Under the pieces are notes generated by a model. That model searched no databases. It saw only the letters and a program-made list of their open reading frames with translations, and had not been told where the DNA came from. Below, one piece after another: positions 3,027-63,376 of a DNA stretch of 64,000 nt (position 1 is the stretch's first letter; each line of letters starts with the position of its first letter). This DNA comes from Eledone cirrhosa (Eukaryota). Location: assembly GCA_964016885.1 (NCBI GenBank), contig OZ024743.1, forward strand, positions 300,328,001-300,392,000. Reading direction: 5' to 3'. The translations under genes were made by a program, and so were the position numbers.

Positions 3027-5495
3027 AAAAGATAACAAGGACGATTGGTTACTCCTGTATTACATTTATTGGTATGTGATGCGCGTTATGCCACTGATCA
3101 CCTCAAGGTTCGATCTGTATCGATCTTACCCGATTCAATAATCAGAAGCTCGACGGACCCCTTAAAATGCTAGTAGAAAATGAATACATGCTATATGATA
3201 AAGTCAGAAGTTCATATGTTGGTCAATAAGGCTAGTTTTGATTGTTTGAATAGATCATAGGCGTGTTTTCGCTTGTAGGGTATGTCAGGGGTGGATGTGA
3301 TGATAAGATGGTGGTGACAGTCGCAGGCTGAGGTGGGCTGTGGTGTGAGGTTGATGGATTGTCGGTAGACAGATTCACGTGTATTTGTGGCTGATTATTG
3401 TGTGTGGTGTGGGTGTGGTGTTTAAAGGTGGTGTGGTGGATGTGTTGGTGGTGTCAAATACAATGAGGAGATACATACCTAGACGTTGTATACATAGACC
3501 TGCGTATATACAGACTGACATATATACACATGCACACACACACAAACATACACACATATATACACATACACACATATATACATATACACATGTGTGTGTG
3601 TGTATATAGAGAGAGGGAGATGCGTAGAGCATAGATAGCGGGAGGGGAAGTGCCAATGGTGTTTGCGTTGTACATATAAATATACATATATACACATGTA
3701 TATATACATACCTACACACAGACACACACACTTGTGTTGTTTAGGGAGGGAAAGTATGTGTTGGCGATGTTAATGATGTTAATGATTGTTGGAGTATGGA
3801 GATGTGCCGAGTGGTGGCGGTGGTGGTGTGCACAGTATATTTACAGGATCGAATTTAACGAATGATTGTAGATTAAAACAGACAGAGAGAACATGGGGGA
3901 ACAAGGTTGTGGGTGTGGGATGGTAGACATATAGCAATGTGTGCAGTGTTGGTGGGGGAGGTGGTGGTGCCGATGGGGTGATATGATCAACATTATATTT
4001 ACAGGATCGGATGCTACAATGGATTGCAAGTGATCTGGGACCTCAAGGTAAATATAATGTCGATCATATCGCCCGATAGCCACCACCACCACCGCCACCA
4101 CCAACACCGCAAACATCGCTATATGTCTACCATCCGCCACCCACAACCTTGTTCCCCCATGTTCCCTCTGTATGTTTTAATCTACAATCATTCGTTAAAT
4201 TCGATCCTGTAAATATACTGTGCACACACCACCACCGCCACCACTACATACAATTCATTAACATCATTAACATCGCCAACACATACTTTCCCTCCCTAAA
4301 CAACGCAAGTGTGTGTGTCTGTGTGTAGGTATGAATATATATATATATATATTAGAATGATCGAGTATCGAAAAATCGGCGCACGAGTTCACGATAAACA
4401 AAATTCGAAATGAGCGGCAGAGGGCTCAATAATTCAGATGAATCAGAGCTATAACTATCGTTAAAATACCGTCACACATAGAACAAGTCTAAAATCAACC
4501 ATACGATAAAAATCGATAATAGAAGATTCGGGACAATCAGATAAAAAATATTAATAAAACAATACATCAATAATTTAAATGAATGTAAAATCATACCCGG
4601 ACCCACTAGAAAGGTGTTAAATCTAGCTTCTTGGGTTTCTGTAAATCCTTAGACTGTACTCTATCAGCTCACATATAAATATATAAGACTTCTAGAGCAA
4701 GCGGACTGGAAGTTTACTTCTTCAACGAGCTTCGTCCTAGCGGATAAGAGGCTAACTACAAGCAAAATACGCACATGGAATCCGGCAAGGGAGATAACCT
4801 CTACATCCGCGAAAACTATTCGAGGAAATGTGGAAATACACATATCGAATAAAAGTGCTCAATAGACATGTTGAAATAAAACAGGAGCTATTCATCACTC
4901 AATAGAATCGACAAAAAATGAGCAATAAAATTAACTGGTGGGTAGCTATGTCCAGAGCTAAAAATATTAGAATGATCGAGTATCGAAAAATTGGCGCACG
5001 AGTTCATGATAAACAAAATTCGAAATGAGCGGCAGAGGGCTCAATAATTCAGATGAATCAGAGCTATAACTATCGTTAAAATACCGTCACACATAGAACA
5101 AGTCTAAAATCAACCATACGATAAAAAATCGATATATACAATGAGGAGATACATACCTAGTCACACTTGGTATGCCAAAGACGTTGTATACATACACATG
5201 CGTATATAAAACACTAACATATATACACATACACACACATACGCACACACACATACATTCACATATATACATATACACACATATATATACACATGTGTGA
5301 GTGTGTCTATATATAGAGAGAGGGGGAGACGTAGATCATAGATAGAAGGAGGGGGAGAGCCAATGGAGATGGTGTTGTACATATAAAGATACATATATAC
5401 ACATGTATATTTATATATATGCTCTACGACTCCCCCTCTCTCTATATATAGCCACACACACACATGTGTATATATATGTGCGTATATGTATATAT

Positions 5496-5539: not shown

Positions 5540-6133
5540 TAGTGTTTATATACGCATGTATATGTATACAACGTATTTGGCAGACTAAGTGTGTCTAGGT
5601 ATGTATCTCCCCACTGTATTTGACACCACCCACACAATCACCAAACTTTCATTACCACAAACAACAACGCCACACCCACACACACACAATACACGCGAAT
5701 CTGTCTACCGACAATCCATCAACCTCACACCACAGCCCACCTTAGCCTACGACCGTCACCACCATCTTATCATCACATCCACCTCCCATACCCTACAGGC
5801 GAAAACACGCCTATGATCTATTCCACCAATGAAAACAAGCCTTATTGACCAACATATGAACTTCTGACTTTATCATATAGCCTGTATTCATTTTCTACTA
5901 GCATTTAAAGGGGTCCGTCGAGCTGCGGATTATTGAATCGGGTAAGATCGATACAGATCGTACCTTGAGGTGATCAGTGGCATAACGCGTGTCACCTACC
6001 AATAAATGTAATAAAGGAGTAACCAATCGTCCTTGTTATCTTTTCAATATAATACACTCTACACCTCGACACAGAAGTGATCCTAAACATCGAGTGCTCA
6101 CCCGGGTGAACCTAGGGTAACTCCAAGTTTCAC

Positions 6134-6138
<5 letters not shown>
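3021..6138. mobile_element. Large foldback element (arms ~3021-4001 and ~4048-6050, tail 6051-6138), PLE-derived, interrupted by the 615-bp element
   Basis: 3021-3400 is the reverse complement of ~5690-6050, and 3705-4001 of 4048-4335. Related sequence occurs at 38830-39280. Confidence 0.8.
4351..5133. repeat. 1.27 tandem copies of a 615-bp structured non-coding unit
   Basis: 4351-4517 recurs at 4966-5133. The left end abuts (TA)n. Homologous to the 602-bp array. Confidence 0.9.
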
Positions 6139-6194
<56 letters not shown>

Positions 6195-6239
6195 GATATT
6201 AAATAAATGGAAACTATATTTATAAAACCATATTTATTT

Positions 6240-6298
6240 CATTATATATATTTCAGGGATATCATATTAACAATATGCTATGCCTTCCTCAGACAAAA
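6240..6298 (-). ncRNA. Hammerhead-like ribozyme (type I) in 3' pseudo-LTR
   Basis: Minus strand reads CTGAGGA-agg...catatt gtt aatatg...cct-GAAA-tata-TA, with a palindromic minimal stem III. Stem I register is imperfect. Confidence 0.7.
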
Positions 6299-7642
6299 TA
6301 CAATATAGACAGTTTTATAGATAAATAGATTTGACATACCGTTCAACATCGACTTGTATTTGAAAAGTTGATTTGGCAGTGAAAAAATTGTAAACAGAAA
6401 GAAAGAGAGAAAAAAGGAAAGAAAGAAAAGAAAGAAAGAAAACGAAGAAAAAGAAGAAATGCATGGAACAAAATAGAGAGATGGAAAGATAGATAAAGAG
6501 AAGAACTTCATGTAAAGAAACAGAGAGAGATATATATAGAGAGAGGAAATAGATAGAGATAGATATATATAGAGAAAAGTAGGTAGTTGGACATCCGTTG
6601 AATAAACGTATCAATGATACATTTATTTATTTATTTATTTATTTAGCTCTAGTATTAATGTAAGGGAGATATATGTGGTTAGGAGAGAAACCAGCTGTTA
6701 TATAGAGAGAAAAATGAAAAGTAACCAGACATAGGCGAGGCATAAAAACCCTATGTTTTAATGTAGAAGTATTAGTATGTATAAAAACCAGGCACTATAA
6801 TGTAAATATCAGTATTCCTGAATGAGACACGTATCCATAATGTGTGAAAAGTAATGATCTTATGTTTAGTTTTAAAAATTCATATGTTTATATGATAACT
6901 ACAAACATCGATGTGAATTTACGTGATCAACTCTGCAAACCCCAATCTCACACGGAGAACATTCTCATTGTGCTATAAAAATTTAAGTATACATATATGT
7001 GTATATATATACACATATATATAGACTCTATATTACTACCATTCTTGTCTTTACTCTACATGATTATCTATCAAGCAGAAATAGAGAACAGATTTCAATA
7101 TATTAATAAAAAAACAGATTTCAATATATTAATAAAAAATATCAGAAACAAAAACAAAAAAAATAATAATAATAATAATAATAAATAATAATAAAATAGA
7201 AAACTAAAAAATATTACGAAAAAATATTACGTATTAAAAATATTACATATTAAAAATAAAAATATTAGAAAATACTACAATAATAAAAATAAACCACAAA
7301 GATCAACCCTTCAAAATTAATTGACAATATATTGCCAAGTTCATTATAAGCATCAGAGTCGAAAACAGATAAAGCTAAAAATGATTTATCAAATCGCGTC
7401 TAGCAAAAATCATTTCAAAAAGTTTAGGATGCCCATTTGGTCTACATGTGTTCTTATATTTAATATAGAAGTTTATCTAGTGTAACGTTTATTCGAAATA
7501 TTTGGAGCATCAACTTTTAGGGTAGTTTAATTTTTCATGAAGAATGTTTAAATAAAAATAAAAATAAAAAGAAGAATAAAAAGAAGAAATCGAAAGATTT
7601 ATCGGCTAGTTTCCCAAATAATTATAAATCAAACTAAATATA

Positions 7643-9863
7643 CTACATTTTAAATTTAATTTTATATTTAAAAGTTGAGTTTAATCTATGTTTGCAGCAA
7701 CTGAATAAATTTGTCCGTAGATTAAGGGAATCTTTAGATTTTAGTATAAAGAATATCTCCTCTGCGCAGAGGTCACATGTCTCAGAGGATGAATTAAAAG
7801 GAATCCCTCTTGAGACTATATTCCAAGCCGTCGAATATCTAACGTTATCTAGCTTAAGTTGCCAGAGTACGCCTGATAGTGCTGTTGAAGATTTTTTGCT
7901 TGGATCTGTGAAAGAAATCTTGTGGTTATTATAGCGAAGTTTAAATTCCGTCGATGTGGAACCGACGTAGTTAAAAGAATTAGAGTCAGTTTTAACATTA
8001 CAATTGTATATTATATTTTTAACTAAGTAGTTGTTATTTAACGGACATTTAGATCTATCTCTACAGTTACATTTGTTAACTTGTATATTATTTATGCTAT
8101 TATCACTAGGTTTTAAGTTCCTATTATTTATTCTATTAATATTTTGTGCTAAATTTTTGGTGGATGAGTAGGTTAATTTTATAGTATGTCTATTGAAAAT
8201 TGAGTGATACCTATGTGTTCTAGGGAAGCGATTATCAAGAGCTTTAAAAAATAGTTTAGCGATGTGGGTTTTAATGTTTAGTGAGAAAGGGGGGGGGGGG
8301 GGCAAACCAAATTATGTTCCTAGTTCTATTTCTTTTTTGGCTTTTGGAATTATTGTAATGCTTTCTATTATAGTTGTTAAGGTTGTTGCCGTAATTAAAA
8401 TAGTTGTTATTTTGTTTAGTTTGTCTATCATTATCTATGTACATAATCTTATCACTATATCCTGCTCTAGCTAACGCTTCATTGTAGTACTGGGCTTTTT
8501 CGTCGAAAATCTTTCTATTAGACGAGATTCTAGAGATACGTTTTTGAACAGAGTTTACTATAGTGTTTTTGACAGATCTGGGGTGGTTAGAGTTAAAGCT
8601 GACATAGTTTAAGTTTTCATTCAACTTGTGAAAAGGATAGTGAAGACATGTGTTGAGATTTAATGTTATATCTAGGAAATTGACTATTCTATGGTTGTTC
8701 TCAATTTCTATTTTAAGATTAAAGTAATTAAAAAATTGTGTAATTTGTTTACATTTTCTATTTAGTTCAGAGTTATTATTATCAATAAGTAAAAGCATGT
8801 CATCTCTATATAAACCTCCGGTAGTACCAGGTATTTTCCTATGTAGCGAATTGATTAAAAGTAAGCCCACAAGGTCAGTTACCTGAGCTGAGTCGGATGA
8901 TCCCATAGTAATGTCAAAATTGCTATCTCTATCTGCTCTGGTCCATAGTTGGTCTTTAAATTCTATCAATGTTTTCCTAGCCGATAATATAATATGCATT
9001 TCATTGCTAGTTAGGTCTGTATGTTTGAATGCGTAATTTAGTGCCTTATTTAGTAGATTAGGGGTAATAGAAGAATAATAGTTAGCAATATCAAGTTGAA
9101 TAAACTTATTATTATTGTTATATTTAATTTGCTTAAACCACTCAACAACCTCTCCAGTTCCCTTCCACAAGCTCAGGTTAGGTAAACAATCCAAGTTCTT
9201 AATTTGCTGTATCACCCTGTCAAGAATGTTTTTGCTTAATTTGCCCAGGTCCGATTTTGATGGTGCGATCAATCTGACTGGCAAGTCATTTTCAAAATTC
9301 CTCTTGTGATCTTTCATATTGATCTTCGGTTTCCTGGGCACGAAAGGTTGTGTTCTGTTCTCAATTTCCAACTCGTGCATTATACAAGATGCTTCGACAT
9401 TCATTTTCTCAAGCTCGGCCTTATCTGCTACCTTGTACTTTTTCCTCAGGTCCTTCAGTATGAGGCCATTATACATGTCTTTCTGCACTCCATAGAGGTT
9501 GTTGGTCTTGTCAGATTTCACCAAGATCTTCTCAGTTTTCTCTAAGCTCTCAATATTATCCTTAATGCCTTTCAGATATTCCTGGCCTTTGAAGTTTCTC
9601 TTGAATTTGACCCCTTGTATGATAGAAATTATATCGTTTTCAAAGTCAGATAAAAGTTTGTTAGGGGGTGGATTTCTTTTAGATTTGAAAACTTTGTTTA
9701 AGTCCGAGACATTTTCATTTATATTAGATTTATCAAAGTGGAATGCTCGCCACCTGATTCTCCTTATAAAAGAGTCAGATTTATCTATTAATTGTTTTAT
9801 AAAGTCTTTGTTTCTAGGTAGAGGTATGTCTTTTAAAGAGGAAGTAATCTTAAAGAATTCCAT
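7643..9863 (-). CDS. PLE polyprotein (reverse transcriptase + C-terminal GIY-YIG endonuclease), ~739 aa if one base is removed from the C14 run at 8289-8302
   Basis: The 530-aa ORF has RT motifs QLDIANYYSSI, FDITMGSSDSAQVTDLVG, GLYRDD, VNFLDITL and SNHP. The overlapping 220-aa ORF has CNCR..CPL, NIIY..YVGST..FKLRYNNH, CDLCAEE and SCCKH. The frames switch at WFAPP|PFSL inside the homopolymer. Confidence 0.9.
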
Positions 9864-10046
9864 TTTTTCAGTTATAATATAAAGCGCTCAACAGTATTGG
9901 AGCAAGATACATGGAAAGTTATATTTAAATTGTTGGGTTACAACTAGTAAATATTTATAACTGATATAAAAGCACACGACAAGTATTTGGAGTATATTTA
10001 CGATATTAAATAAATGGAAACTATATTTATAAAACCATATTTATTT

Positions 10047-10105
10047 CATTATATATATTTCAGGGATATCATATTAACAATATGCTATGCCTTCCTCAGA
10101 CAAAA
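10047..10105 (-). ncRNA. Hammerhead-like ribozyme in 5' pseudo-LTR copy
   Basis: Same sequence as 6240-6298. Confidence 0.7.
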
Positions 10106-10482
10106 TACAATATAGACAGTTTTATAGATAAATAGATTTGACATACCGTTCAACATCGACTTGTATTTGAAAAGTTGATTTGGCAGTGAAAAAATTGTAA
10201 ACAGAAAGAAAGAAAGAGAGAAAAAAGGAAAGAAAGAAAAGAAAGAAAGAAAACGAAGAAAAAGAAGAAAAAGAAGAAATGCATGGAACAAAATAGAGAG
10301 ATGGAAAGATAGATAAAGAGAAGAACTTCATGTAAAGAAACAGAGAGAGATATATATAGAGAGAGGAAATAGATAGAGATAGATATTTATAGAGAAAAGT
10401 AGGTAGTTGGACATCCGTTGAATAAACGTATCAATGATACATTTATTTATTTATTTATTTATTTAGCTCTAGTATTAATGTA

Positions 10483-10530
<48 letters not shown>

Positions 10531-10539: not shown

Positions 10540-13500
10540 ATACACGATTGTGTATAGTAGATTATATTAATAAAAGGAATTCCAACTTTGTCTGATTTAC
10601 TTGTTTTATTTACAATCATTTAAAATTTATAATGGTATTAGAATGAAATAGTATGGTAGAATATTAAATGTTAAGTGTTAATTGAACAAGTACTTTCATG
10701 CTTTCGCAATCTTCAGGTTCTTAATGTGTGGTGACAGTCAAGTTTGCAATTTTCAACTGCAATGAGATTGTGTGCCTTATATACAGTGAAAAATGGCTCC
10801 AGAATGCTAATTCTTGCAAACTGTATTTCGACCAATCGGTGTGTAGTTTCACTGTATTACTAAAGCTGATTGGTTTAGGCGTCACGGTTGGTTGAACATG
10901 TCTAACGACTACTATTTGACCCTATCCAAAGCATCAATTGTTTTGCTATTTTTTAGAAATGATGAAAAGAGCATTTTCTAGTAATGATCACCATCAACAT
11001 CAATTTTATTATTATTATTATTGTTGTTGTTGTTGTTAGTGGTCGTAGTCGACATGGTCTTAGTCATAGTCATAGTAGGAGTAACCTTCCATTATTATTG
11101 TTCATTTAGCTTGGGTTTGAATTTATCAATAAAATTATTTTCTTTGATTTTTCTCTTGATTTCACTTGGGCTGTGTAATTTGTAGAATGGGAATATTATA
11201 AATATTCACTGACCACATGTGGCTAGATGGTTACTTAGGGGTATCTGACGGACATTTGGGTCTCTGAATTGCTGTCGGTGTACCCTTGCACGTTCCGATA
11301 GTGCATTTCCAGTTCGACCGACATATAATTCTTCACAACTCGGGCATTTAATGCAGTAAATTAGATTTCTGCTTTTGCAGTTCATATTTGCATTTGGTAA
11401 TATTTTTCCAGTTTTTGTTTTCATATATTGACCGGCGTGTATGGATTGACATGTACCACATCGACTATCTCTGCATTTAGATACAGTGAATGATTGGTCT
11501 CTTGTTATTAAGGTCAAACTTTGCTTTTGTTAGTAATTGCTTCAACTTTTTCGGCTGTCTTTTACTAAGAGTCAAAGATCGATCTGTGATTAAGCCTTTT
11601 AATTAACTACTTTGAGCATGATCGGTATGTTTGCTTTGGCAGTGTTGAAGGTATTCAGGTGACATGGGTTGTGTGTCATTATAAATGGTATGACCGATTC
11701 TTGGTTTCTTCTTCCTTGGGTTGTCTTAAGTTGTTGTATAGGTATTTTTATAGCCCGCTGTATGCCATTTTCTATAAGTAGAGATGGGTATTTTTGTTTG
11801 AGCAAAAATTCTCATAGTTCTGTTAGGCGTTTGTACCTGGTATTCGTATCTTCTAAAATGGTACAAATTCTTCTGGCTAGGCAGTATGGGATGTTGCGTT
11901 TTGTATGAGATGGATGGCACGACTTAAAATTAAGATATTGATGGGTGTCTGTGTGTTTATAATATATATCCGTGGTAATGGTGGTGTCGTTTTTGATTAT
12001 CATTATATCTAGGAATGGTAATTTGGTACTACTCATCTCTTTTGTGAATTGGAGAGATGGGTGTAGGTTATTCAGGAGGATATTGAACTCATCCAGAGTA
12101 TCTAGAGATTCTGTCCAGATGATGAAACAGTCGTCAAGGTATCTCTTCCAAGATTTTTCAATGTACTTTCTAAAGTCAGTACTATATTTTTCCTCTATTT
12201 CTTGGTAGAGTTGTTGTTCTAAGTATCAAATTACAGAGATTGCGTAAACGGGAGCAAACTTCGTTCTCATCGCTATGCCTCTAATTTGGATGTAATTCTT
12301 TCCATTGAAGAAGAAAGTGTTGTTTGCTAGAATAAGTTTAACTGCGTCTAATATAAATGGCGCTGTGAATCTAATGGGAATCACTTCTCTATGTTTTTCC
12401 ACCCAGTATTTAACCGCCTTTATTCCTAAATCATGTGTAATGTTGGTGTAAAGGCTTACCACATCAAAACTAAGTAGAAATGAATTCGTTTCCGTGGTTT
12501 GGGGAAGATGGGACAGGAAGCCAATATCATCCCGGAAGAAACTGGGTATGTGAATACAAAGTGGTTTCAAAATAATGTCAACACAATTGCTTAGACGGTG
12601 AGTGGGGCATGTTGGACCAGCTATAATAGGTCTAAGTTTTAAGTCTTTTGGGTGTAGTAATTTAATGTACTCAGTCTTTTCTTCTCTTACTGCCAGTTCT
12701 ATTTCCTTTGACTTATGAACTTTCGGTAGGCCATACAGTTTGCTGGGGTTTGGCTCAAAATTGGTGATGTAGTCTCTTTCCTTATCAGTAAGTGAGTTGT
12801 GGTATTTTGAAGCCACGTTGTTGATCTTCTTCATGATGTTGTGGTCTATATTTGACGGTATTTCATGATAGAATATTGTGTCTTTCAGTTGTTCCTCAAC
12901 CAAATCCTTGTAGTATTCAGCATCCATTATAACAACTGCACCCTCTTTATCTGCTTGTTTAATTATTATTGTTTTATCAACTTGTATACGTTTAAGTGCA
13001 GATATTTCTGATTTGTTAATGTTTGTCGTGACATTAGTATTACGTCTAAGAGGAAATTTAGACAGGATGTCAATGTATTGGTCGAGATAGATATTTCTTC
13101 CTTTTGGCGGAGTCAAATTTGATTTATTCTTTACTAGTGATTCATCACTCTCATTAATTTTATCAGCGAAGAATTCTACAGGACGTAATTTTCGACAGAA
13201 TTCTTGGGTATCCTCCTTCAGTTCTTGGTGGTTAACTGTTGGAGTCGGTGTGAATTTCAGTCGTTTTGACAGAATTTGCATTTCATTATTGTCAAGATCT
13301 CTTTTGGATAAATTAATTATTTTAGGATCTACGTGTTTTGGGTATGTTTCTTCCTGCAGTTTTTCTTTTTCCGGTTTTTGTTTTCCTGACGTTAAAAAAT
13401 GGAATTTTCTCTGTTCAGTATTTATATTCCTGTTGGTGTTTGCTTGATGAACTTTTGGTCGTGGTATTATATTTGGTTTCGTTATGTATTTTGTCCTATT

Positions 13501-14700
13501 TTTGGTATTATGTATATTATATTTCCATTTCTTGTTAGCATTATTTTTAACAATCTGAGGGAAATGACCAAGGTTTGCTTTCAGGTTTGGATCGTTTTTT
13601 CGTCCAGTTTCTTGTGGGTAATCTCTGTTGAGATATTGAGAGTGATCTGGTTTATCTACGTTTTGTTTCCCCGTCCCTTGTGGGTAGTTTCTGTTGAGAT
13701 CTTGAAAATGATCTCCTGGTTTTACTACTTCTCATGGTCTGGTCAAAGGAATATCTATCGTGTTTGTGTTTTTTGTTCATGTTGTGTGCGTTAGGGTGTT
13801 TTTGTAGAAAATACGAAGAGTTATTACCGTAGTTCTTCTTTGATTCAAGGTAAGGTGAGTGTTTGTGTTGGCACGTGTTCTGGCGGATGTTGTGTTGGTG
13901 AGATTGTCCACTTTTAATGCTTTTTCTCAAGGTTCCAGAGTCTTTACCGTAATTTGCAGCATATTCGTCGAGAAAGAAATAATTGTTTCTGCGGCCATTC
14001 CTTTCTTGATTTGATTTCTTCTTTTGAGATATCTATGATCCATAGTTCTCGTAGTTTTTCAGCTAGAATACCAGTCGTCAGCTTTGAAATTTCAACTTCA
14101 ATTTGGTCATCGATAGCTTCATATTTGGCTTTGTAGCGGGATTATTTACATTGAGAAATGGAGATGTCGGTCCTTAATTTTGTCAATGTAAGTTCCCATC
14201 GCAGTTTTGTTTCTTCTTCTGGTTCTCCTGCAATTTCTGTAATTAGGTATTTACGAGGGAGTATGGGTGCCTTTAGAGAGAGCCATTTCGAATGTGTTTC
14301 GACATATTTTTCGCATTTGTATGCTTTCCAGAAGTTTTGTTTTCTTACGTTAAGAAATTTTTTCCCTCTCTTCCACATTTCTTTTCTTATTCGATGTGTT
14401 TTGTTTTCCAAATTTCTTTCGTATAGTTCTCACATCCAAGGGGGTTGTGGTAGGCTTTCTCTTGTATATTTGATAACTGTTGGTATAATTTCAGCTAAAT
14501 TCTTAATTTCAGAGTTTATATGTTCAGATATAAGTTTTCCGTCTGTAGATTGTTTTTCTATTTCCTTTAAAGTAGAGGATTGTGTGTCAATCAGCGTGAT
14601 AAATGCTTCAGGTTCAATTAACGTACTTGTTCAATTACCGTGTTCAATTAACGTACTTGTTCAATTAACACTTAACATTTAATATTCTACCATACGATTT
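10540..14700 (-). mobile_element. Decayed Neptune-like Penelope element (frameshifted RT + Cys-linker + GIY-YIG, with N-terminal extension)
   Basis: Colinear ORF pieces: LKFTPTP, YGLPKVHK, LRPIIAG, SFDVVSLYTNI, QIRGIAM, KRYLDDCF, LPFLDI, SCHP, then CRDSRCGTC...NLIYCIKC..C..LYVGRT. Multiple stops and frameshifts. Confidence 0.88.
10681..10725 (-). ncRNA. Minimal type I hammerhead ribozyme at the 3' end of the Neptune-like element
   Basis: Minus strand reads gaac-CTGAAGA-t-tgc gaaa gca-t-GAAA-gtac-TT-gttc. Stem I is gaac/gttc and stem III is the palindrome AGTACT. Confidence 0.8.
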
Positions 14701-16240: not shown

Positions 16241-16442
16241 ACAATATATTAACAAATGGGAAGTATATTTATAGAACCATATTTATTACATTATACATGT
16301 TTCAAGGGCCATCAAGGCAAGCTATGGTGCGCTTTCATCAGATAAAATATAATATAGGTTAGTTTTATGAATAGATATTGACATACCCTGAAAAAATGCA
16401 ACCATTCTGGGTGGAATCACAACAAATTAAATATAACCTCAA
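16241..16442 (-). mobile_element. Solo pseudo-LTR 3' end related to 6192-6400, with hammerhead core at ~16289-16346
   Basis: Flanks are alignable. Minus strand reads CTGATGA-aag...ccat..atgg..ctt-GAAA-catg-TA. Confidence 0.75.
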
Positions 16443-16458
16443 CATATATATATATACG

Positions 16459-20046: not shown

Positions 20047-20200
20047 TCATACATATATATATATACATTCATACATATATATATATATATATACATTCAT
20101 ACATACATATATATATATATATACATTCATACATATATATATATACATTCATACATATATATATATATATATATACATTCATACATACATATATATATAT
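18993..20200. repeat. Compound microsatellite of (TA)n punctuated by CATTCATACATA; continues at 16445-16684, 17614-17722 and 23284-23556
   Basis: Direct reading. Confidence 0.95.
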
Positions 20201-23200
20201 GAATATAGACATAGAATATTCGAAAATATTCTGTATGTTTATAATAAACATTTTGAAGACCTAATCGCTATAGAATAGAATACGTCACGTATTACAATTA
20301 GATTCTCGATAAAAGCAAGGGAAGTAATCTACGCGTTTCATTCTTGTTAGAAATCTTCAGGACTACATATCCAGTGCTTTTATCGAGAATGACACAGCTA
20401 GAGACTTATAGAATACTTAGCTGTGTACAGGAACTGGTTTGAAAGAGCGGTTGCCGGTCCGGCAGAAATTAGAAATTGGAATAAATGCTCTGAAATAGCG
20501 ATATATATGTGAATATAGACATAGAATATTCGAAAATATTCTGTATGTTTATAATAAACATTTTGAAGACCTAATCGCTATAGAATAGAATACGTCACGT
20601 ATTACAATTAGATTCTCGATAAAAGCAAGGGAAGTAATCTACGCGTTTCATTCTTGTTAGAAATCTTCAGGACTACATATCCAGTGCTTTTATCGAGAAT
20701 GACACAGCTAGAGACTTATAGAATACTTAGCTGTGTACAGGAACTGGTTTGAAAGAGCGGTTGCCGGTCCGGCAGAAATTAGAAATTGGAATAAATGCTC
20801 TGAAATAGCGATATATATGTGAATATAGACATAGAATATTCGAAAATATTCTGTATGTTTATAATAAACATTTTGAAGACCTAATCGCTATAGAATAGAA
20901 TACGTCACGTATTACAATTAGATTCTCGATAAAAGCAAGGGAAGTAATCTACGCGTTTCATTCTTGTTAGAAATCTTCAGGACTACATATCCAGTGCTTT
21001 TATCGAGAATGACACAGCTAGAGACTTATAGAATACTTAGCTGTGTACAGGAACTGGTTTGAAAGAGCGGTTGCCGGTCCGGCAGAAATTAGAAATTGGA
21101 ATAAATGCTCTGAAATAGCGATATATATGTGAATATAGACATAGAATATTCGAAAATATTCTGTATGTTTATAATAAACATTTTGAAGACCTAATCGCTA
21201 TAGAATAGAATACGTCACGTATTACAATTAGATTCTCGGTAAAAGCAAGGGAAGTAATCTACGCGTTTCATTCTTGTTAGAAATCTTCAGGACTACATAT
21301 CCAGTGCTTTTATCGAGAATGACACAGCTAGAGACTTATAGAATACTTAGCTGTGTACAGGAACTGGTTTGAAAGAGCGGTTGCCGGTCCGGCAGAAATT
21401 AGAAATTGGAATAAATGCTCTGAAATAGCGATATATATGTGAATATAGACATAGAATATTCGAAAATATTCTGTATGTTTATAATAAACATTTTGAAGAC
21501 CTAATCGCTATAGAATAGAAGCACTGGATATGTAGTCCTGAAGATTTCTAACAAGAATGAAACGCGTAGATTACTTCCCTTGCTTTTATCGAGAATCTAA
21601 TTGTAATACGTGACGTATTCTATTCTATAGCGATTAGGTCTTCAAAATGTTTATTATAAACATACAGAATATTTTCGAATATTCTATGTCTATATTCACA
21701 TATATATCGCTATTTCAGAGCATTTATTCCAATTTCTAATTTCTGCCGGACCGGCAACCGCTCTTTCAAACCAGTTCCTGTACACAGCTAAGTATTCTAT
21801 AAGTCTCTAGCTGTGTCATTCTCGATAAAAGCACTGGATATGTAGTCCTGAAGATTTCTAACAAGAATGAAACGCGTAGATTACTTCCCTTGCTTTTATC
21901 GAGAATCTAATTGTAATACGTGACGTATTCTATTCTATAGCGATTAGGTCTTCAACATGTTTATTATAAACATACAGAATATTTTCGAATATTCTATGTC
22001 TATATTCACATATATATCGCTATTTCAGAGCATTTATTCCAATTTCTAATTTCTGCCGGACCGGCAACCGCTCTTTCAAACCAGTTCCTGTACACAGCTA
22101 AGTATTCTATAAGTCTCTAGCTGTGTCATTCTCGATAAAAGCACTGGATATGTAGTCCTGAAGATTTCTAACAAGAATGAAACGCGTAGATTACTTCCCT
22201 TGCTTTTATCGAGAATCTAATTGTAATACGTGACGTATTCTATTCTATAGCGATTAGGTCTTCAAAATGTTTATTATAAACATACAGAATATTTTCGAAT
22301 ATTCTATGTCTATATTCACATATATATCGCTATTTCAGAGCATTTATTCCAATTTCTAATTTCTGCCGGACCGGCAACCGCTCTTTCAAACCAGTTCCTG
22401 TACACAGCTAAGTATTCTATAAGTCTCTAGCTGTGTCATTCTCGATAAAAGCACTGGATATGTAGTCCTGAAGATTTCTAACAAGAATGAAACGCGTAGA
22501 TTACTTCCCTTGCTTTTATCGAGAATCTAATTGTAATACGTGACGTATTCTATTCTATAGCGATTAGGTCTTCAAAATGTTTATTATAAACATACAGAAT
22601 ATTTTCGAATATTCTATGTCTATATTCACATATATATCGCTATTTCAGAGCATTTATTCCAATTTCTAATTTCTGCCGGACCGGCAACCGCTCTTTCAAA
22701 CCAGTTCCTGTACACAGCTAAGTATTCTATAAGTCTCTAGCTGTGTCATTCTCGATAAAAGCACTGGATATGTAGTCCTGAAGATTTCTAACAAGAATGA
22801 AACGCGTAGATTACTTCCCTTGCTTTTATCGAGAATCTAATTGTAATACGTGACGTATTCTATTCTATAGCGATTAGGTCTTCAAAATGTTTATTATAAA
22901 CATACAGAATATTTTCGAATATTCTATGTCTATATTCACATATATATCGCTATTTCAGAGCATTTATTCCAATTTCTAATTTCTGCCGGACCGGCAACCG
23001 CTCTTTCAAACCAGTTCCTGTACACAGCTAAGTATTCTATAAGTCTCTAGCTGTGTCATTCTCGATAAAAGCACTGGATATGTAGTCCTGAAGATTTCTA
23101 ACAAGAATGAAACGCGTAGATTACTTCCCTTGCTTTTATCGAGAATCTAATTGTAATACGTGACGTATTCTATTCTATAGCGATTAGGTCTTCAAAATGT

Positions 23201-23283
23201 TTATTATAAACATACAGAATATTTTCGAATATTCTATGTCTATATTCACATATATATCGCTATTTCAGAGCATTTATTCCAAT
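20200..23283. repeat. Head-to-head array of a 310-bp hammerhead-containing non-coding unit (retrozyme-like non-autonomous PLE)
   Basis: Unit starts at 20201, 20511, 20821, 21131 and 21441, then an inversion at ~21520, then starts at 21521, 21831, 22141, 22451, 22761 and 23071. Only two substitutions were noticed. Confidence 0.95.
21532..21574 (+). ncRNA. Type I hammerhead ribozyme (first of 6 plus-strand copies at 310-bp spacing; 4 minus-strand copies from 20324-20366)
   Basis: gtagtc-CTGAAGA-t-ttct aaca agaa-t-GAAA-cgcg-TA-gattac. In full units stem I is extended by the 16-bp helix attctcgataaaagca/tgcttttatcgagaat. Predicted cleavage is after A21568. Confidence 0.9.
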
Positions 23284-23560: not shown

Positions 23561-24352
23561 CTGTCAGACACGCAGTGACTAACAATAGAATGTTTTAAGT
23601 CTGCGTGTCTGACATATATACGTAGCTTGAGAATAAACAAATTCAAGGGGTGTCGCTGTCATGGTGATCGCTGCCAAACATGTTTTTAATGTATCGTCTT
23701 ATTGGCTAATCAACCAACGCAATTAATTGTTGCTCAAAAGAACTCCGCCATTTTGTTTGCACGTTTATTTATTTTGTTTGCACGATTATTTATTTCGCTT
23801 TCGAATCTTCCTCCTATTTCGTCGTTTATCATCAAAATATTTTTCTCGTTTTGGTAAGTTTTATTGTTAATTCATATATGATTTTTTAAGTTTATATTAA
23901 CTATTTTTTTTTTCAGTTCGTTATAACATGCTTATAATATTGGTTGTATCATATTTACTTGTATATTTGTCCATATTATTGTTCGTCTTATGTTAGATTA
24001 TTTAATTATTATTATGTTAGATTATTTTTTTATTATTATGTTTACTATTTATATGTAATATTTAATTTTTATTAATTCAACTATAACAATTATTATGTAA
24101 AATATATTTATTTAATATTGATTGATTTTTGTAGTTGTTTATATTAAAAGTCTGAAAATATGTTTATACATCTTACAATAATATTTATAAGATCATTTAT
24201 AAAATAATTTGTATACATCTTACAATAATATTTATAAGATCATTTATAAAATAACTATTATATAATCTAATTACATTACAACGATAAGTTATTATTAATA
24301 TATAAAATGTTTAACTAGAGTTATTACAAGCGGTGCCTTAAAAAAATATTAA

Positions 24353-24798
24353 ACTAGACCTGAAAAATGCGCAAGCTCAAAAGAGTTACATAATGTTATA
24401 ATAAACCTTCAAAAGTATGGGACTAGAGTTGTTGCTCAGAAATATTGTAATCATTATCTATCGTCCACTCTGTCGCATCCGTTTACAAAAATGAGACTCG
24501 TAACGAACTCAAGACGGCACGATAATTATTTAAGTGAATTTATAATATAGAATTCGGTTTAAGTGCATTTCGTATTAATCATTACTAAACATCTAATATG
24601 AGATATTGAACATTAGCTTAAATAATTATCGTGTCGTCTTGAGTTCGTTATGAGTCTCTTTTTATAAAAGGATGCCACATAGTGTACGATAGATAATGAT
24701 TACAATATTTTTGAGCAACAACCCTAGTCCCACACTTTTGAAGGTTTATTATAACATTCTGTGGCTCTTTTGAACTTGCGCATTTTTCAGGTCTAGTA
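24353..24798. mobile_element. MITE with ~180-bp terminal inverted repeats
   Basis: ACTAGACCTGAAAAATGCGCAAG... / ...CTTGCGCATTTTTCAGGTCTAGT. Arms are 24353-24534 and ~24616-24798. Confidence 0.8.
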
Positions 24799-25507
24799 TA
24801 TATATGTATACACATATATAAATATGCGCGCGCGAGCGTGTCTGTGTGCGTGTGTGACTGTGGATGTGTGGGTATTTATATATAATTTTAGTTATATACC
24901 ACCCACTGTTATATTCAGTGATGAGTTTATATACAGGTGCTCCTTCAGAATCACATTATTGTCTTTAACAACTTGAACGTTTTCAGCTTTGAAAGTTGGA
25001 GCAATTTACTTTTACTATGAAATGTGTAGCATCGATATCATAGGTTACTTGTTGCAGAATTGTATACGAACATAATCATTTTAAAATAGATGTACATATA
25101 TATATATATATCAGAAAAATCCATACTATATTGTATAAAATACGACAAAGAAAAACGTGAATGATGAAGGTTTAGACTTAGCAACTTTAATCTCATCTAA
25201 TAAATATCTAAGCTGTCTAAACATAATTTTACCCTTGTTTTTTTCTTTGTAATATCATACGTATATGTCAATAACTAGTTAAACAACGAGATGACCTTCT
25301 TCACCAAATATGATTCAGTCGGATTCTTATGGAGATATATTAACTGACAAAAACACGACTGACACTAGCTAGGATTTGACGTTGAGGAGGTTGAAGTCGA
25401 TTGGGATGAAATATCGTGTAAAACATAAATCGACATACAAAAATGAAGAAAGATGTATTTTTGTTGTATCATTATGTATGCGTAACCATATGCTTCTAGA
25501 TATGAAA

Positions 25508-25981: not shown

Positions 25982-26320
25982 CTTAACACTTCACACAGAG
26001 TAAAACATTTCGTTTTAATCATTTTCTAACAAGAGAAAAAAGAGAGAGGGAAACAAAAAGGAAAAACATATATTTTTCTTCCTCATAATCGTCTCTTTCT
26101 CCCTGTTTTCACATATATATATATATATATATATATATCAAGGAAGAATATTTTCGAAACAGCGTGTGCGTTTGAAATTATTAGAAATGTATCGCCGTAT
26201 TTTGACTAAAGAAATTAAAGAAATTACTTAGCCTGATAGTGGGGTTAAGAACCCTCAGAGAAATGGAAAAATATGAGTATTGACGTCATATATATATATA
26301 ATATATATATATAGAGAGAG

Positions 26321-26697
26321 ATTTTGAGTTTATGTTGGTTGTATACCAACACCTCAATATGCAGGCTGGAGCACTCGACGAAGTGCGCAGGTTGGTTTGG
26401 TTACTCCGGAGTAGTGTAAAATAAAGTTAAATAAAAGTCAAATGATTAAAATTTAGCTTCGTTTATTACTGCTATATATATTTCAGACTCCAGTTCCCCA
26501 GTGAATTAACAACCCAGCAAGGAACTCGGCGTATCAGAGTATTGACAATATCATACACCTAAACAACATATGTACTTGTCTATACTATACTAATTCAAAC
26601 TGCCTGAAGAGGTCACAGCCAAAGATGGCTGTCACTGAAATATATATAGCAGTAATAAACGAAGCTAAATTTTAATCATTTGACTTTTATTTAACTT

Positions 26698-26705
<8 letters not shown>
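26321..26705. mobile_element. Foldback mini-element with intact hammerhead and ~95-nt tail
   Basis: A ~70-bp inverted repeat at 26417-26486 and 26636-26705. Confidence 0.8.
26599..26653 (+). ncRNA. Type I hammerhead ribozyme
   Basis: actgc-CTGAAGA-ggtcacagcc aaagat ggctgtcact-GAAA-tatata-TA-gcagt. Stem I is perfect. Confidence 0.88.
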
Positions 26706-29700: not shown

Positions 29701-31258
29701 CATCTACAACTTCCAGAATGCCTTTCACATATTTTTTACTATATCGGTAAAAATAGATTAATGTATTTTTAATCGTTCACATCCCAAACTGCACCTACCG
29801 TATTGATACTATCCTGGCACGTTAGACATTGAACTATGTTTTCAAATAATTGAAAATTCGTTTTACGCCAACTCACTTGGTAACCCACTTTTGTATTTAA
29901 CAATGTAAACTGAAACAAAATAGAAAATATTCTTACGTGTAGACATAAAACAATATTCACAACACATTATTTGAAACCAAATATAGATAAACTAATCAAT
30001 TGCTGAAATGATTACTTGTTATCGTTCAGTATAAATTCAAATACCTAGAAACAATTTTCGTCGGAGAATCATACTTCCGGAAAAATTCGTCTGACGGAAG
30101 CTGTCTGAACTCGCGGAAATAATATTGGTGAAGGAAACTTGGCAGCCGGAAATACAACTACCGGAAAGAGGCTGATTAACTGAAATAAATGTGACAATAT
30201 ATCACTGTCACCGAATATCAGACTCTTTGGCATCGACATATATCTGTTGGTAGAGTTAGAGTTAACAGAACTTCTAGAACTGGCATGTGATTAAACCTGC
30301 CTGGCTATCGCAAATAAGGTTATTGAATAAAAGTTGAGTTCAGGAAATAACATTTTCGCGAGATCGGTATGATTATATTAGTGAAAGTCACTTGGTTTAC
30401 AGAAAAATGAAATATTAGAATAATGAACGAATTATGGAGAGGTAGGAACAATCTAATATTTTCTTCAGGAAATGTACGTATAAACCTATCTCGTTTGTGA
30501 ATATTATTAAAAAGAATATTAAACAAATGGTAAATAGCTATTTCTTGTACAATATATTTTCATGCGATATTTCCCCTGAATATACATTTCACTTCACACG
30601 ATTAATCATAATATTTTACTCCCAGGTACGATAGCCTTGTACAAAAAACACGTATTTTTTTAGTGTTAATTTTGACAAATTAAATAACGAGAACTCGAAT
30701 ACTAATGTATAAATAGGAAACAGTTGAATTGGTTCTTGTGAAGATAATACTGGAGCATGACAAATAGTACACTCTCAGTATACATCAGGTACGCTATTAT
30801 ATAATTACTTGATAATAATAATATAATACAGCTCACTAAAAATACATATTATACACTCACTTCCCAATGAAAATAACAAAAAGCACTGCCCTAGATAGAC
30901 GTAGATTCTACATACTTTCAACATAGTAGTGTAATGTAAACCATATATCACATTTCCTAAACAATCATGCCGAGGTACTAACATATATAACACCACTCAA
31001 GCATCATAATATTACACAACTCACAATGCACATATTCTACGAAACAAGATAAAAACACAGAATATCCGTAGAAATAATAATCCAAATCCTTCAATAAATC
31101 AAAACAAAAGCAGTCTTTTTCAGGCGAAAAAAAAACAAACTCTGAACTAAGAAACACTGCAGTATTCCTGGAGATATACACTCGAAATAAGAATTATAAT
31201 TGGTCCGTGTAACTAATTTCGGAAATCCTTAGCCAATCTACTCTCGATACATAATATT

Positions 31259-31359
31259 AATTATTTCTACTTTTGGCACAAGGCCGGCAATTATCCCAGT
31301 GCATTACTGGTATTTTATTTTATCGACCTCGTAAGGATGAAAGGCCAAGTTAACCTCAA
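31259..31359 (-). mobile_element. Same SINE, 3' half only
   Basis: tttctactttttggcacaaggcc...tatcgacctcgtaaggatgaaagg. Confidence 0.8.
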
Positions 31360-38829: not shown

Positions 38830-39277
38830 AATAAAATAATAATACAAGGACGAATGGTTAAGCCTTCATTACTTTTATTGGATTCTGTCATTATTACAAC
38901 AGAGTTGCGATGAGCCTTTGATGCCAGTGTCGAGCCTGATCGATACAGATCGAACTGTGAGCTGATCAATAGCGAAACGCGCAATACCAACCAATAAACG
39001 TAATGAAGGATTAGAGGGTCGGACGCCATGCCTTGCCGCATAGAGTTACGGCACTTTCCATTCTGAGTTCAAATACCGCCGAAGTTAACTTTGCCTTTCA
39101 TCCTTACGGGGTCGATAAAATGAAGTACCAGTAATACACTGGCTAACTGCTGGCCTTGTGACAAAGGTAGAAACAATTATTATATTACACTCTCTAACTT
39201 TACACCTCGATAATGACGTGAACCTAAACACCGAATGCTAACCTGCATGAACCTACAGTAACTTCGCGTTACATTCC

Positions 39278-39427: not shown

Positions 39428-39470
<43 letters not shown>

Positions 39471-39474
<4 letters not shown>

Positions 39475-41381
39475 AATATAAATTAGCTAGAATCGTATTT
39501 CGGCTATTGGAAATTAGCGAAAAACAACTTCCGAGATGTGTCGCAAGCGCTCAAAAGATTCTAACAAACCAGAGCTACAACATACGTTAAAAGGCCAAAA
39601 CAGACTAAGACGATGGTTAAACCATTATCCGCACAGCCATAGAAACGACCAAGTAATTCGGGTCAAACAAATAAAACAATGATTGAAAAATTTACCCGGA
39701 CCCCTGGATGGTTGGTGAAAGTACAGCATTTGGGCTTCTGCGACTCCTAAATTAAGTACTGTCCGCTTAGACAAATAATGTTAAGCCTTTGGTAAGATGA
39801 TTGAACAAGGAAGTCACTTTCTCAACAGGTTTTAGTTCAAGTGCCAGGTCAAGGATTGACCGTTACCAATACCCACATGGGGCTGGGCAAGGGAGGCAAC
39901 CCTTATTTTTGGCGGATGAATTCAGTATGTGTGCAAAATTGCAAAATATCACAAAACGAATTAAGTTCTCAACAGAATGGTTTTAAAGTTAACAAAAGCT
40001 ATTCATCAGTCAATAGAATCAAGTAAAAAAATCAAGAAAATTAACTGGTCAATAGCTAGACTCTGGACATTAATACAAATATAATTTGCGAGAATCGTAT
40101 TTTGGCTATTGGAAATTAGCGAAAAACAACTTGCGGGATGTATGACAAGCGCTCAAAAGATTCTAACAAACCAGAGCTACAGCATACGTTAAAATGCCAA
40201 AACACACTGAGACGATGGTTAAACCATTATCCGCACAGCCATAGAAACGATCAAGTAATTCGTGTCAAACAAATAAAACAATGATTGAAAAATTTACCCG
40301 GACCCCTGGATGGTTGGTGAAAGTACAGCATTTGGGCTTCTGCGACTCCTAAATTAAGTACTGTCCGCTTAGACAAATAATGTTAAGCCTTTGGTAAGAT
40401 GATTGAACAAGGAAGTCACTTTCTCAACAGGTTTTAGTTCAAGTGCCAGGTCAAGGATTGACCGTTACCAATACCCACATGGGGCTCGGCAAGGGAGGCA
40501 ACCCTTATTTTTGGCGGATGAATTCAGTATGTGTGCAAAATTGCAAAATATCACAAAACGAATTAAGTTCTCAACAGAATGGTTTTAAAGTTAACAAAAG
40601 CTATTCATCAGTCAATAGAATCAAGTAAAAAAATCAAGAAAATTAACTGGTCAATAGCTAGACTCTGGACATTAATACAAATATAATTTGCGAGAATCGT
40701 ATTTTGGCTATTGGAAATTAGCGAAAAACAACTTGCGGGATGTATGACAAGCGCTCAAAAGATTCTAACAAACCAGAGCTACAGCATACGTTAAAATGCC
40801 AAAACACACGGAGACGATGGTTAAACCATTATCCGCACAGCCATAGAAACGATCAAGTAATTCGGGTCAAACAAATAAAACAATGATTGAAAAATTTACC
40901 CGGACCCCTGGATGGTTGGTGAAAGTCCAGCATTTGGGCTTCTGCGACTCCTAAATTAAGTACTGTCCGCTTAGACAAATAATGTTAAGCCTTTGGTAAG
41001 ATGATTGAACAAGGAAGTCACTTTCTTAACAGGTTTTAGTTCAAGTGCCAGGTCAAGGATTGACCGTTACCAATACCCACATGGGGCTCGGCAAGGGAGG
41101 CAACCCTTATTTTTGGCGGATGAATTCAGTATGTGTGCAAAATTGCAAAATATCACAAAACGAATTAAGTTCTCAACAGAATGGTTTTAAAGTTAACAAA
41201 AGCTATTCATCAGTCAATAGAATCAACTAAAAAAATCAAGAAAATTAACTGGTCAATAGCTAGACTCTGGAGATTAATACAAATAGATGATAAAACAAAG
41301 AAGGCACTTTCTCAACAGGTTTTAGTTCAAGTGCCAGGCCAAGGATTGACCGTTACCAATACCCACGTGGGGCTCGGCAAG
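39471..41381. repeat. Three tandem copies plus a ~95-bp internal fragment of a 602-bp structured non-coding unit
   Basis: TACCCGGACCC occurs at 39693, 40295 and 40897. (TA)n lies on both sides. Confidence 0.95.
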
Positions 41382-46454: not shown

Positions 46455-46732
46455 GTGAGGTTTTTTTTACAAAATGATAAATAACCGAGGTGTCCTACAC
46501 GAGTGAAAGTATAAAGAAAAAAATATGAAATCGAAAATACAACTGGATTCTTATTTTTTTTTTAAATATATATATTTATTTAGTTCCTTTACCGGTTTCG
46601 CAGTTCTTCTGCAGTTCTTCTGCTTTTCAACTCTACTTTTGAAAAGCAGAAGAACTGCGAAACCGGTAAAGGAACCAATTAAATATATATATTTTTAAAA
46701 AAAATAAGACTCCAGTTGCATTTGCGATTTCA

Positions 46733-46733
<1 letters not shown>
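46450..46733. mobile_element. Foldback mini-element with U3-A8 hammerhead variant (46636-46672, +); relative at 45152-45310 (-)
   Basis: Inverted arms around ~46632. The core reads ctt-TTGAAAA-gcag aagaa ctgc-GAAA-ccgg-TA-aag. Confidence 0.75.
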
Positions 46734-49204: not shown

Positions 49205-51064
<1,860 letters not shown>

Positions 51065-51481: not shown

Positions 51482-51489
51482 TATATATA

Positions 51490-51880
51490 TATTTATTAAA
51501 ATAACAGATTAAAGTTTAAGCAAATAATCGCTGCTTTCACCCTTAACGAGATCTTCATATATGTGCGTACGTGTGTGTATGTCTGTCTGTCTGGGTCTGC
51601 GTGCATATATGGGAGTGTGTGTGTGTATGAATAAGTACTCACACGTGTATGAAGATCCCGTTAACTATGAAAGCAGCGATTCTTTGCTTAAACTTTAATC
51701 TGTTATTTTAATAAATATTTGATTTACGGTTCCTATATATTTGATATATATTTATCCTTATCGAGCCCTCTTTGAATTTTAGTCTTCAAATTTATTATTA
51801 TTACTATATATATATATATATATATATATATTAATAATAATAAATTTGAAGACTAAAATTCAAAGAGGGCTCGATAAGTA
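51490..51880. mobile_element. Rearranged copies of the 2808-2962 PLE terminus in both orientations
   Basis: 51651-51806 (+), 51490-51558 (-) and 51833-51878 (-). Confidence 0.75.
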
Positions 51881-53794: not shown

Positions 53795-54610
53795 TATAAA
53801 CTGCAATTTACATTCTTCATAGTTTGGTTTGCATGTGGTGATCTTCTAAATTATTTCACGATATGCGCTCTTGTGTATATTGCTATAAATATCTCATATT
53901 AAATTCTATCTACAACGTATTGCTATGATGTAAAATTTGGTGTCCACAAAGTAAACCGGGATCTCTTCAAAATATGTAGATTATGAGGTCTGATATATTA
54001 TATATACAATATATTTCCACAATATGTCAATATGTTTTATTTAGAGTAATGTGTTTATAACACTTAAGTATTTTCACACTGTATTAACGGTCAATTTCCT
54101 TTCTCCATCTCTTTCGCCAACCCTCTCTCTCCTTCTCAACGCCCCCCTCTCTCTCTCCTGAATATACATGAGTATTTCATATCTCTGTTGATTCTCTGAT
54201 TGATAAATCTTAATTCATTCACTTGAAATTCACTGTAGCAGTTTCAGCGTATAATATAATTACAATTGTCTTCATACTCGTTTATAAAACATGCAATTTG
54301 TCTGTTTATGGGATTACATAATAGCATCGTTTTTAGAGTTGTACACAATGTCATAATCTATTATTTATATGGAATTGTGTTTCGAGGTATTTTTCCATAC
54401 TTTTGTAACTTTTATACACACACAAACATATACATACCAGTTAATATATACCCAATACCATGCTTAACATAATAGCTATTCTATTATAATTACAACGACA
54501 ACAATGATAGTATGCATATAACCGCTCATACCATAGCTACACATACATACACATTAAAATTGCATTGCATCTACAAAATAATAAATTATTGAATACATAT
54601 CAATGAATAT

Positions 54611-54797
54611 AATTGTTTCTACTTTTTGGCACAAGGCCAGCAATTACCCTGTGCATTACTGGTACTTTATTTTATCGACCCCATAATGATGAAAGGCAAA
54701 GTTAACCTCGGCGGGATTTGAACTCAGAATGGCAAAGGTCGTAACTCCATGCGTCAAACATGGCGTCCGACCCTCTACAGATACTGCCAATCCACCG
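54611..54797 (-). mobile_element. Same SINE, full length
   Basis: A-box-like TGGCAGTATCTGTAG, B-box GAGTTCAAATCCC and the conserved central domain. Confidence 0.88.

Positions 54798-63324: not shown

Positions 63325-63376
<52 letters not shown>

Follow-up and report, generated by a model that had tools for sequence, protein, structure and literature searches.

The 13-letter motif that a Penelope-like element (PLE) shares with two sets of ~600-bp non-coding units in 64,000 nucleotides of Eledone cirrhosa DNA (this whole stretch is called the window) is, as predicted from its letters, the 3' arm of a bulged hairpin of the form GCUC-Y...R-UN-GAGC-ACU on the sense (minus) strand of the elements. 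It is likely that this hairpin guides the start of reverse transcription by the reverse transcriptase/endonuclease (RT/EN) of Hydra-type PLEs and that the ~600-nt passengers recruit the protein in trans through it.

A motif shared by a PLE and ~600-bp units

A sequence-only reading of this DNA had placed three 13-mers on the plus strand, at 9882 in the PLE, at 4853 in a 615-bp unit (E1) and at 39963 in a 602-bp unit (E2), and all three are present; the third was found again at 40565 and 41167 in tandem 602-bp copies. Junctions were placed where the TA-joined end is most nearly identical to the internal copy (9999 for the PLE, 4964 for E1 and 40073 for E2), and the distances between motif and junction that had been given are correct within the TA microhomology (117, 111-113 and 110-111 nt, respectively). 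The motif does occur in all three, but E1 and E2 are homologous over their full length and so are not independent witnesses; since they align end to end, they were counted as one family (blastn around the motif gave 77% over 118 nt). An earlier consensus at no more than one mismatch had 10 matches in the window against 0.41 expected and 0 of 100 shuffles reached 10, a count made on the very sites from which the consensus had been derived; two of the ten (9544 and 13691) look like chance.

Of the proposed cis-element, a shared motif downstream of the priming site was retained, but not as a linear 13-mer at a fixed 111-117 nt. The hairpin whose 3' arm is the motif has its 5' arm 0-5 nt from a terminus. 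The matching spacings are largely coincidental, since in the PLE the motif belongs to a compact second hairpin and in the passengers to an expanded one, of which it is the far arm. In the PLE, the 5' arm of hairpin 1 (9968-9993, minus) begins 5 nt past the fixed terminus; this hairpin is degenerate, A-U-closed and has one mismatch, and is weak alone (E 5.2 with the covariance model described below). Hairpin 2 (9882-9903, minus) is compact, with the motif (9882-9894) as its 3' arm and tail, and the ATG is next at 9863.

A twin hairpin upstream of Hydra-type open reading frames

An alignment of 40 RT proteins led to 78 loci in metagenomes and 16 in a genome collection, and the 63 of these 94 whose match starts near the N-terminus were used; they form 53 clusters at 80%, 45 of them with at least 130 nt upstream. 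A descriptor composed after the loci had been viewed found the hairpin upstream of the ORF in 37 of the 45 clusters, doubled in 25, and not at all in 8. The same descriptor matched 0.21 of 45 in shuffles, 0 of 269 ORF windows and 0 of 45 reverse strands. Among the loci listed the layout is hammerhead, ~45 nt, hairpin 1, spacer, hairpin 2 and ATG. Hydra-like RT matches were also seen in bacterial MAG contigs (L087:3001-3833; L082-L095), one of them 491 kb long, and are most likely host DNA in the bins; among the viral contigs searched no Hydra relative was found. Hairpin matches on the opposite strand in flanks (L085:5077-5110 and 5765-5800; L047:2523-2557, all minus) are perhaps inverted copies or further passengers.

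In an alignment of 62 hairpins a 4-bp GCUC/GAGC stem is followed by a bulge of 2 nt and by a pair that is either C-G or U-A; a variable stem-loop lies inside, and ACU comes last. The outer stem is near-invariant (2/62 are closed by U-A), and three of its four pairs are invariant and hence uninformative on pairing. Pair 13-36, which follows the bulge and was left free in the search, is without exception either C-G (45 of the 62 hairpins) or U-A (17); its covariation amounted to 0.29, compared to 0.11 for shuffles and no more than 0.09 for slid controls. In the part of PMC8557442 covered here, the twin hairpin is unmentioned in the text, yet it can be made out by eye in five of the six Hydra consensus sequences published there, those of coral, sea cucumber (two), copepod and, imperfectly, octopus; the sixth ends short of the hairpin region.

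Ends were mapped by comparing UTRs with hammerhead-bearing 3' ends, giving 14 rows with 13 distinct ends. Eleven rows, or 10 of the distinct ends from ~7 families, lie 0-4 nt upstream of a hairpin (6 before hairpin 1, 4 before hairpin 2), and most run into TA repeats; the ends of L004, L017 and L035 (3/13) do not fit. In the window the gap between terminus and hairpin is 5 nt in the PLE, 5 nt in E1 and 3 nt in E2. A small hammerhead element with an inverted copy (26316-26704) has its TA-joined end 4 nt before an A-U-closed hairpin that resembles PLE hairpin 1. Another small element with a degenerate hammerhead and a hairpin (2808-2961, plus) ends ~33 nt past the hairpin, and its sister copy (51489-51556) ends 5 nt before it, a pair which would support two start sites within the window itself. 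From the conserved hairpin and from ends 0-5 nt upstream of either copy we infer that the hairpin positions the RT.

The hairpin could be real and read otherwise, by the EN or a host factor on DNA, or as a signal for transcription or translation ahead of the ATG, with the nearby termini secondary. Such a reading would agree with outer stem letters that are invariant and not covarying, with a second copy whose end is 12-48 nt short of where the ORF match begins and with the AT-rich runs preceding the hairpins in Hydra loci, which give TA microhomology and could attract junctions. It accounts poorly, however, for the perfect C-G/U-A covariation past the bulge, for G-U pairs on the sense strand, for the retention of the hairpin in non-coding elements without an ATG and for the long-range compensation in E1 and E2, and we consider it unlikely compared to a hairpin that positions the RT.

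The ~600-bp units carry an expanded hairpin

E1 (4349-4963, minus) joins (TA)n at ~4335-4352 with its 3' end and is preceded by a 5'-truncated upstream copy (4964-5134, minus, 98% identical) of the same polarity as the pseudo-LTR of the PLE. E2 forms an array of three 602-bp units, E2a-c (39470-41285, minus, 97-98% alike), with the left end on (TA)n at 39431-39480. No ATG ORF longer than 59 aa was found in E1 and none longer than 49 aa within 39473-40680 of E2. One array of each unit was fully readable. A 97-bp internal piece of a diverged E2 copy (41285-41381, minus, 93%) abuts the array and ends in (TA)n; it is joined exactly at the unit boundary of the array, which suggests a template jump to another RNA.

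The order in the units is compact hairpin A, ~75 nt, terminus, expanded hairpin and core. Hairpin A contains a second motif copy per unit, which the sequence-only reading lacked. It lies on the minus strand at 4419-4449 and again at 5034-5064 in E1 (~75 nt upstream of the expanded hairpin in tandem RNA) and at 39545-39575, 40147-40177 and 40749-40779 in E2, where it is imperfect here and canonical in most reads (among 40 of 211 variants listed). The motif itself pairs not locally but with ten letters just past the fixed terminus, ~90 nt upstream on the minus strand. In E1 the 5' arm (4949-4958, minus) starts 5 nt past the terminus and the motif is the 3' arm (4853-4868, minus); in E2 the 3' arms lie at 39963-39978, 40565-40580 and 41167-41182 (minus), and the arm of E2c pairs with an intact 5' arm (41264-41273, minus). 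All ten pairs form in E1 and E2c, with probabilities of 0.75-1.0, and in either unit the arm at the terminus is the sole 10/10 partner of the motif (shuffle P 0.0001 and 0.0017). E1 and E2c differ in both letters of four of the ten pairs and in a single letter of a fifth; from E1 to E2c the closing pair goes from G-C to U-A and the post-bulge pair from U-A to C-G, alternatives which the Hydra hairpins show too, and both GAGC/R letters that differ between the motifs are compensated. The inner stem of each expanded hairpin has G-U on the minus strand only. A weaker local alternative for the 5' arm of E1 is found at 4888 (E 0.04). What looked at the junction like a local inversion of E1 relative to E2 turned out to be the compensated arm and was discarded, as was a third, separate junction hairpin, for which the restoring change at 40048 made up 4% of the depth of read sample X1 and 0 of X4 among the variants listed (X1 may come from the same sample as the window; X4 carries a second organism label and comprises 23 contigs).

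The 5' arms of E2a (40060-40069) and E2b (40662-40671) contain one G-G mismatch that is missing from nearly all reads and contigs, and these units fold the expanded stem poorly (0.1-0.4), though they were inserted. At 40068 the pairing letter is restored in ~99-100% of the read depth in four of four runs (among 40 of 211 variants listed). Since the stem-breaking letter (40068 and 40670) is common to two of the three units and almost absent from the reads, either the template of the array was already weakened or the mutation preceded its duplication. The summed read depth of the E units, thousands to tens of thousands compared to 4-13 per contig, indicates a high-copy repeat and is no copy number. 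RAD read start and end peaks fall by eye at AATT sites (24 of 341 loose ends listed) and are uninformative on termini. The autonomous loci scanned had no hairpin insert longer than 22 nt, and the ~90-nt expansion therefore rests on two families.

With a descriptor that matched 17 times elsewhere in the window, no type I hammerhead was found on either strand of E1 or E2. Rfam gave no ribozyme for the E units at E ≤10, with just 3 and 1 matches (E 3-8), and for the whole window the best 150 of 187 matches contained microsatellite-driven miRNA noise. Searched with DNA patterns of the E family, metagenome and genome contigs gave no match and viral contigs gave 3, which were taken as chance (one, in L001, was inspected). 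E1 and E2 have no alignable stretch in common with the PLE, the hairpin alone being shared. Polarity, TA targets and hairpins agree in making the ~600-nt units minus-strand non-coding passengers of a PLE, as had been proposed. Since several Hydra-like fragments are present in the window, the driver family of the E units cannot be named.

Strand of the passenger RNA and its ~390-nt core

The sequence-only reading had noted a bias of G-U pairs in the helices towards the plus strand, in conflict with minus-strand passengers. Overall no such bias was found: the 20 hand-picked helices have 21 wobble pairs, of which 13 favour minus and 8 plus, and those favouring plus belong to two helices of the core and to one within the expanded loop. 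The conflict mostly dissolves, and the strand-specific predicted hairpins together with 13 of 21 wobbles appear to favour minus. The core (4455-4852 in E1, ~390 nt) has conserved blocks and compensated helices. Its best-compensated helix (4747-4802 in E1, 41054-41109 in E2) has G-U on minus in both units. Folding z-scores were -3.2 on minus and -1.8 on plus for the E1 core, which favours minus, and -0.6 and -0.5 for that of E2, which favours neither strand; RNAalifold on the two sequences was uninformative on strand. We take minus to be the template RNA.

The passengers could also be ambisense, with minus-strand hairpins for mobilisation and a structured plus-strand RNA (the core and a helix at 4880-4950) with a function of its own. 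In this direction point plus-only G-U pairs in helix H (three in E1, one in E2) and in two further helices in both units, as well as the read variants 40337 and 40386, which are best tolerated on plus (among 40 of 211 variants listed); against them stand the minus-favouring majority of wobbles, the G-U pairs of the best-compensated core helix and the better folding of the E1 core on minus, the E2 core folding better on neither. A second, plus-strand function is therefore improbable to us, and minus-strand passengers are the preferred reading.

The core had no match to an Rfam family or to outside sequences. HDV-like ribozymes are nested double pseudoknots with a 3-bp P3, a 7-8-nt L3 and a catalytic C in J4/2. 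A relaxed descriptor, made post hoc, fits homologous minus-strand sites in E1 and E2, just upstream of hairpin A, where Hydra elements place the hammerhead; the candidate L3 is 15-17 nt long, P1 of E2 has a mismatch and 4-13 of 40 shuffles (10-33%) match too. This putative fit is a lead only. It is a rather doubtful idea, if an attractive one, that the hairpin would be a portable RT-docking module which tolerates a 90-nt insert and whose 5' arm sets the start, and that the E family would be a new class of PLE satellite RNA, its hammerhead replaced by a self-cleaving or circularising core, possibly with an HDV-like pseudoknot at ~4520-4650 (minus). Other candidates for the core were rejected. 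Group I introns have a P3/P7 pseudoknot with a G-binding site; on the plus strand there was no Rfam match to such a core, and the candidate P7 partner is a local hairpin in both units. A hammerhead around the conserved UGAUGA block has a broken core in E1 and no stem I. SECIS and C/D box readings were dismissed too.

The PLE at 6192-9999 probably belongs to the Hydra clade

One full 3.8-kb unit of the PLE (6192-9999, minus) meets (TA)n at 6138-6193 with its 3' end. Its pseudo-LTR is a 5'-truncated upstream copy (10000-10482, minus; right end by eye), next to which, on plus, lies (TA)n at 10486-10514. The RT frame (8274-9863, minus, 530 aa) contains RWR at 37, DKT at 118 and YRDD at 352 and has 138 relatives, the best named ones from Argonauta and Octopus. 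The linker with CxCX5C and, C-terminally, an EN of GIY-YIG type with CxxC and CxH are encoded at 7643-8311 (minus) in another frame; the break is a 14-G run at 8289-8302. Pfam had no match for either frame. A type I hammerhead lies in the pseudo-LTR (10050-10107, minus) and is repeated at 6243-6300, with the predicted cut 51 nt upstream of the junction.

The element had been called Naiad-like. Naiads have an N-terminal EN, DKA and no canonical hammerhead, whereas Hydra PLEs encode the RT followed by GIY-YIG, have RWK, DKT, CxCX5C and a hammerhead and are generally shorter than 3 kb, one family being 3045 bp long, as far as the covered part of Craig et al. (2021, PMC8557442) describes them. The label does not fit: the EN frame is 3' of the RT frame on minus, the column of the DKG motif reads D118 K119 T120 (a DKA at residue 147 sits outside conserved columns) and canonical type I hammerheads were found on minus at 10099 and 6292. 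Going by the same part of that paper, the element shares with the Hydra clade the order RT-GIY-YIG, RWx, DKT, CxCX5C, CxxC and CxH (a CX2-5CxxC is absent), the canonical type I hammerhead, the (TA)n target and the pseudo-LTR, of which the last two are common to Naiads as well. It differs by RWR at 37, where relatives show RWK, by the broken frame instead of a single ORF and by 3.8 kb, owing to a long 3' UTR. On these motifs the element is probably a member of the Hydra clade.

That a Naiad RT/EN reads a linear 13-nt element lying downstream of the priming site by ~115 nt is a very unlikely explanation. The three distances do agree, but in other Hydra loci the spacing is variable, the motif lying ~20-35 or ~80-100 nt past the first terminus, and the PLE fails the Naiad domain order, DKA and lack of a hammerhead. 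Moreover, the five GAGCACT matches in the covered part of the Naiad consensus file, in a search blind to line-wrapped matches, are all outside a Hydra hairpin context, one having the outer stem only. A hairpin read by a Hydra-type protein remains the preferred explanation.

An independent covariance model finds the motif

A covariance model was built solely from the 62 hairpins of other Hydra loci, without sequence from the window. It gave 11 matches in the window at E ≤10, the first of which is the PLE motif (9879-9911, 27.6 bits, E 4e-5), followed by hairpin A of E1 twice (E 0.005), 2870-2930 (E 0.01) and the E1 motif (4850-4896, E 0.04); none of the E2 copies was matched. In a matrix scan the PLE and E1 sites scored 25-29, above the null maxima of 11-24 from 15 shuffles, and the compact sites of E2 scored 10-11, within the range of the shuffles. 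Of 30 further loci, some of them from families represented in the training set, 24 were found by the model to have hairpins, and 46 of 49 matches were on the sense strand. That the PLE and a single passenger family match by chance, for which the homology of E1 and E2 and the post hoc choice of the 13-mer could be cited, is barely credible given scores of an independent model and matrix above the nulls, clade-wide conservation and the compensated arm, and it is refuted for the PLE and E1, the case of E2 standing on the compensated long-range arm.

Other elements in the window

The window is AT-rich and laden with microsatellites. A typical retrozyme lies between TA-rich runs at 20191-23283: its 310-bp unit contains a type I hammerhead and is repeated 4.3 and 5.7 times in two arrays set head to head. 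One end of these arrays stops just before a small GCU..GAGCA stem, shared by a related piece at 25.8-25.9 kb; it is perhaps another clade's version of the signal. A second, broken PLE (11206-14032, minus), with a hammerhead at 10716, has a cysteine linker which we take to be Neptune-like and gave no match with the Hydra hairpin model. Further EN or RT-EN fragments are found at 90-500, 1487-1870, 48341-48922 and 49300-50560; three contain CxCX5C and the window therefore holds several Hydra-like families. The 49-50 kb fragment ends in a hammerhead-like core and a microsatellite. Short hammerhead-bearing inserts in TA runs lie at 16250-16443, 62194-62535 / 63396-63999 and 63141-63329, and the tail of the 16.3-kb insert resembles that of the Hydra PLE. 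Besides, there is a dispersed 170-nt SINE-like family with 83-90% identity (1355-1520, 31254-31357, 39012-39184, 54609-54796 and 59830-60005), and long fold-back stretches (self-inverted, 81-84%) occur at 3732-4308, 24350-24800 and 46525-46733.

Discussion

The RTs of PLEs are the closest relatives of telomerase RT. In the mechanism that we propose, the Hydra RT/EN protein would bind the hairpin between hammerhead and ATG, nick the (TA)n target and begin cDNA synthesis on the RNA a few nt 5' of the hairpin; two hairpin copies would account for the pair of start sites and for the optional 'tail' of PLEs. The minus-strand RNA of the E units would recruit the Hydra protein in trans through its expanded hairpin, and tandem copies might arise from multimeric or circular RNA or by template jumps. 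The core of the sequence-only reading, minus-strand passengers that would be recognised via a downstream cis-element, is supported; binding of the protein is what we infer from the conserved element.

For a Poseidon PLE from Anolis, two internal start sites have been found in vitro, the tail being the stretch between them (Frangieh et al. 2024, PMC11167929). These sites are downstream of the hammerhead, and RNA lying 3' of them is needed. As far as the covered part of PMC11167929 goes, the sites lie in an AC-rich stem-loop within the ORF with no discrete repeated recognition motif, whereas in the Hydra-type elements each site precedes one copy of a hairpin that is conserved in the 5' UTR. In the literature searched, chiefly the main text of openly accessible papers, no account of such a hairpin was found.

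Among passengers, non-LTR retrozymes, tandem units without coding capacity, are believed to owe their mobility to PLEs, according to the covered parts of PMC7229834 and bioRxiv 10.64898/2026.07.22.740005. Expression as circular RNA is a further mark of retrozymes. E1 and E2 are non-coding tandem units too, but they are 602-615 nt long and no hammerhead was found in them, whereas retrozymes have ~170-400 nt and a type I hammerhead per unit; and their link to a PLE is a covarying cis-hairpin, where in those two sources that of retrozymes is co-occurrence or pLTR homology. Closer in this respect are the non-autonomous elements of Chlamys such as MRC1, which in the covered part of PMC8557442 are hammerhead-less and head-to-tail with 3' similarity to autonomous families. 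Both are hammerhead-less PLE partners in head-to-tail arrangement; unlike the Chlamys elements, E1 and E2 have nothing alignable with the PLE beyond the hairpin, and host and partner are an animal and a Hydra-type PLE.

On how PLEs choose their RNA and why a 'tail' is optional, the in vitro study offers, in its covered part, two start sites and no defined signal. A hairpin of 25-30 nt, duplicated clade-wide a few nt behind each start site, would provide a recognition element open to direct testing and would explain the tail in a simple way. It is also a sequence-level link from PLEs to non-autonomous passengers and may serve as a marker for hammerhead-less passengers that retrozyme searches overlook, and possibly as a minimal tag for RNA-templated insertion into (TA)n.
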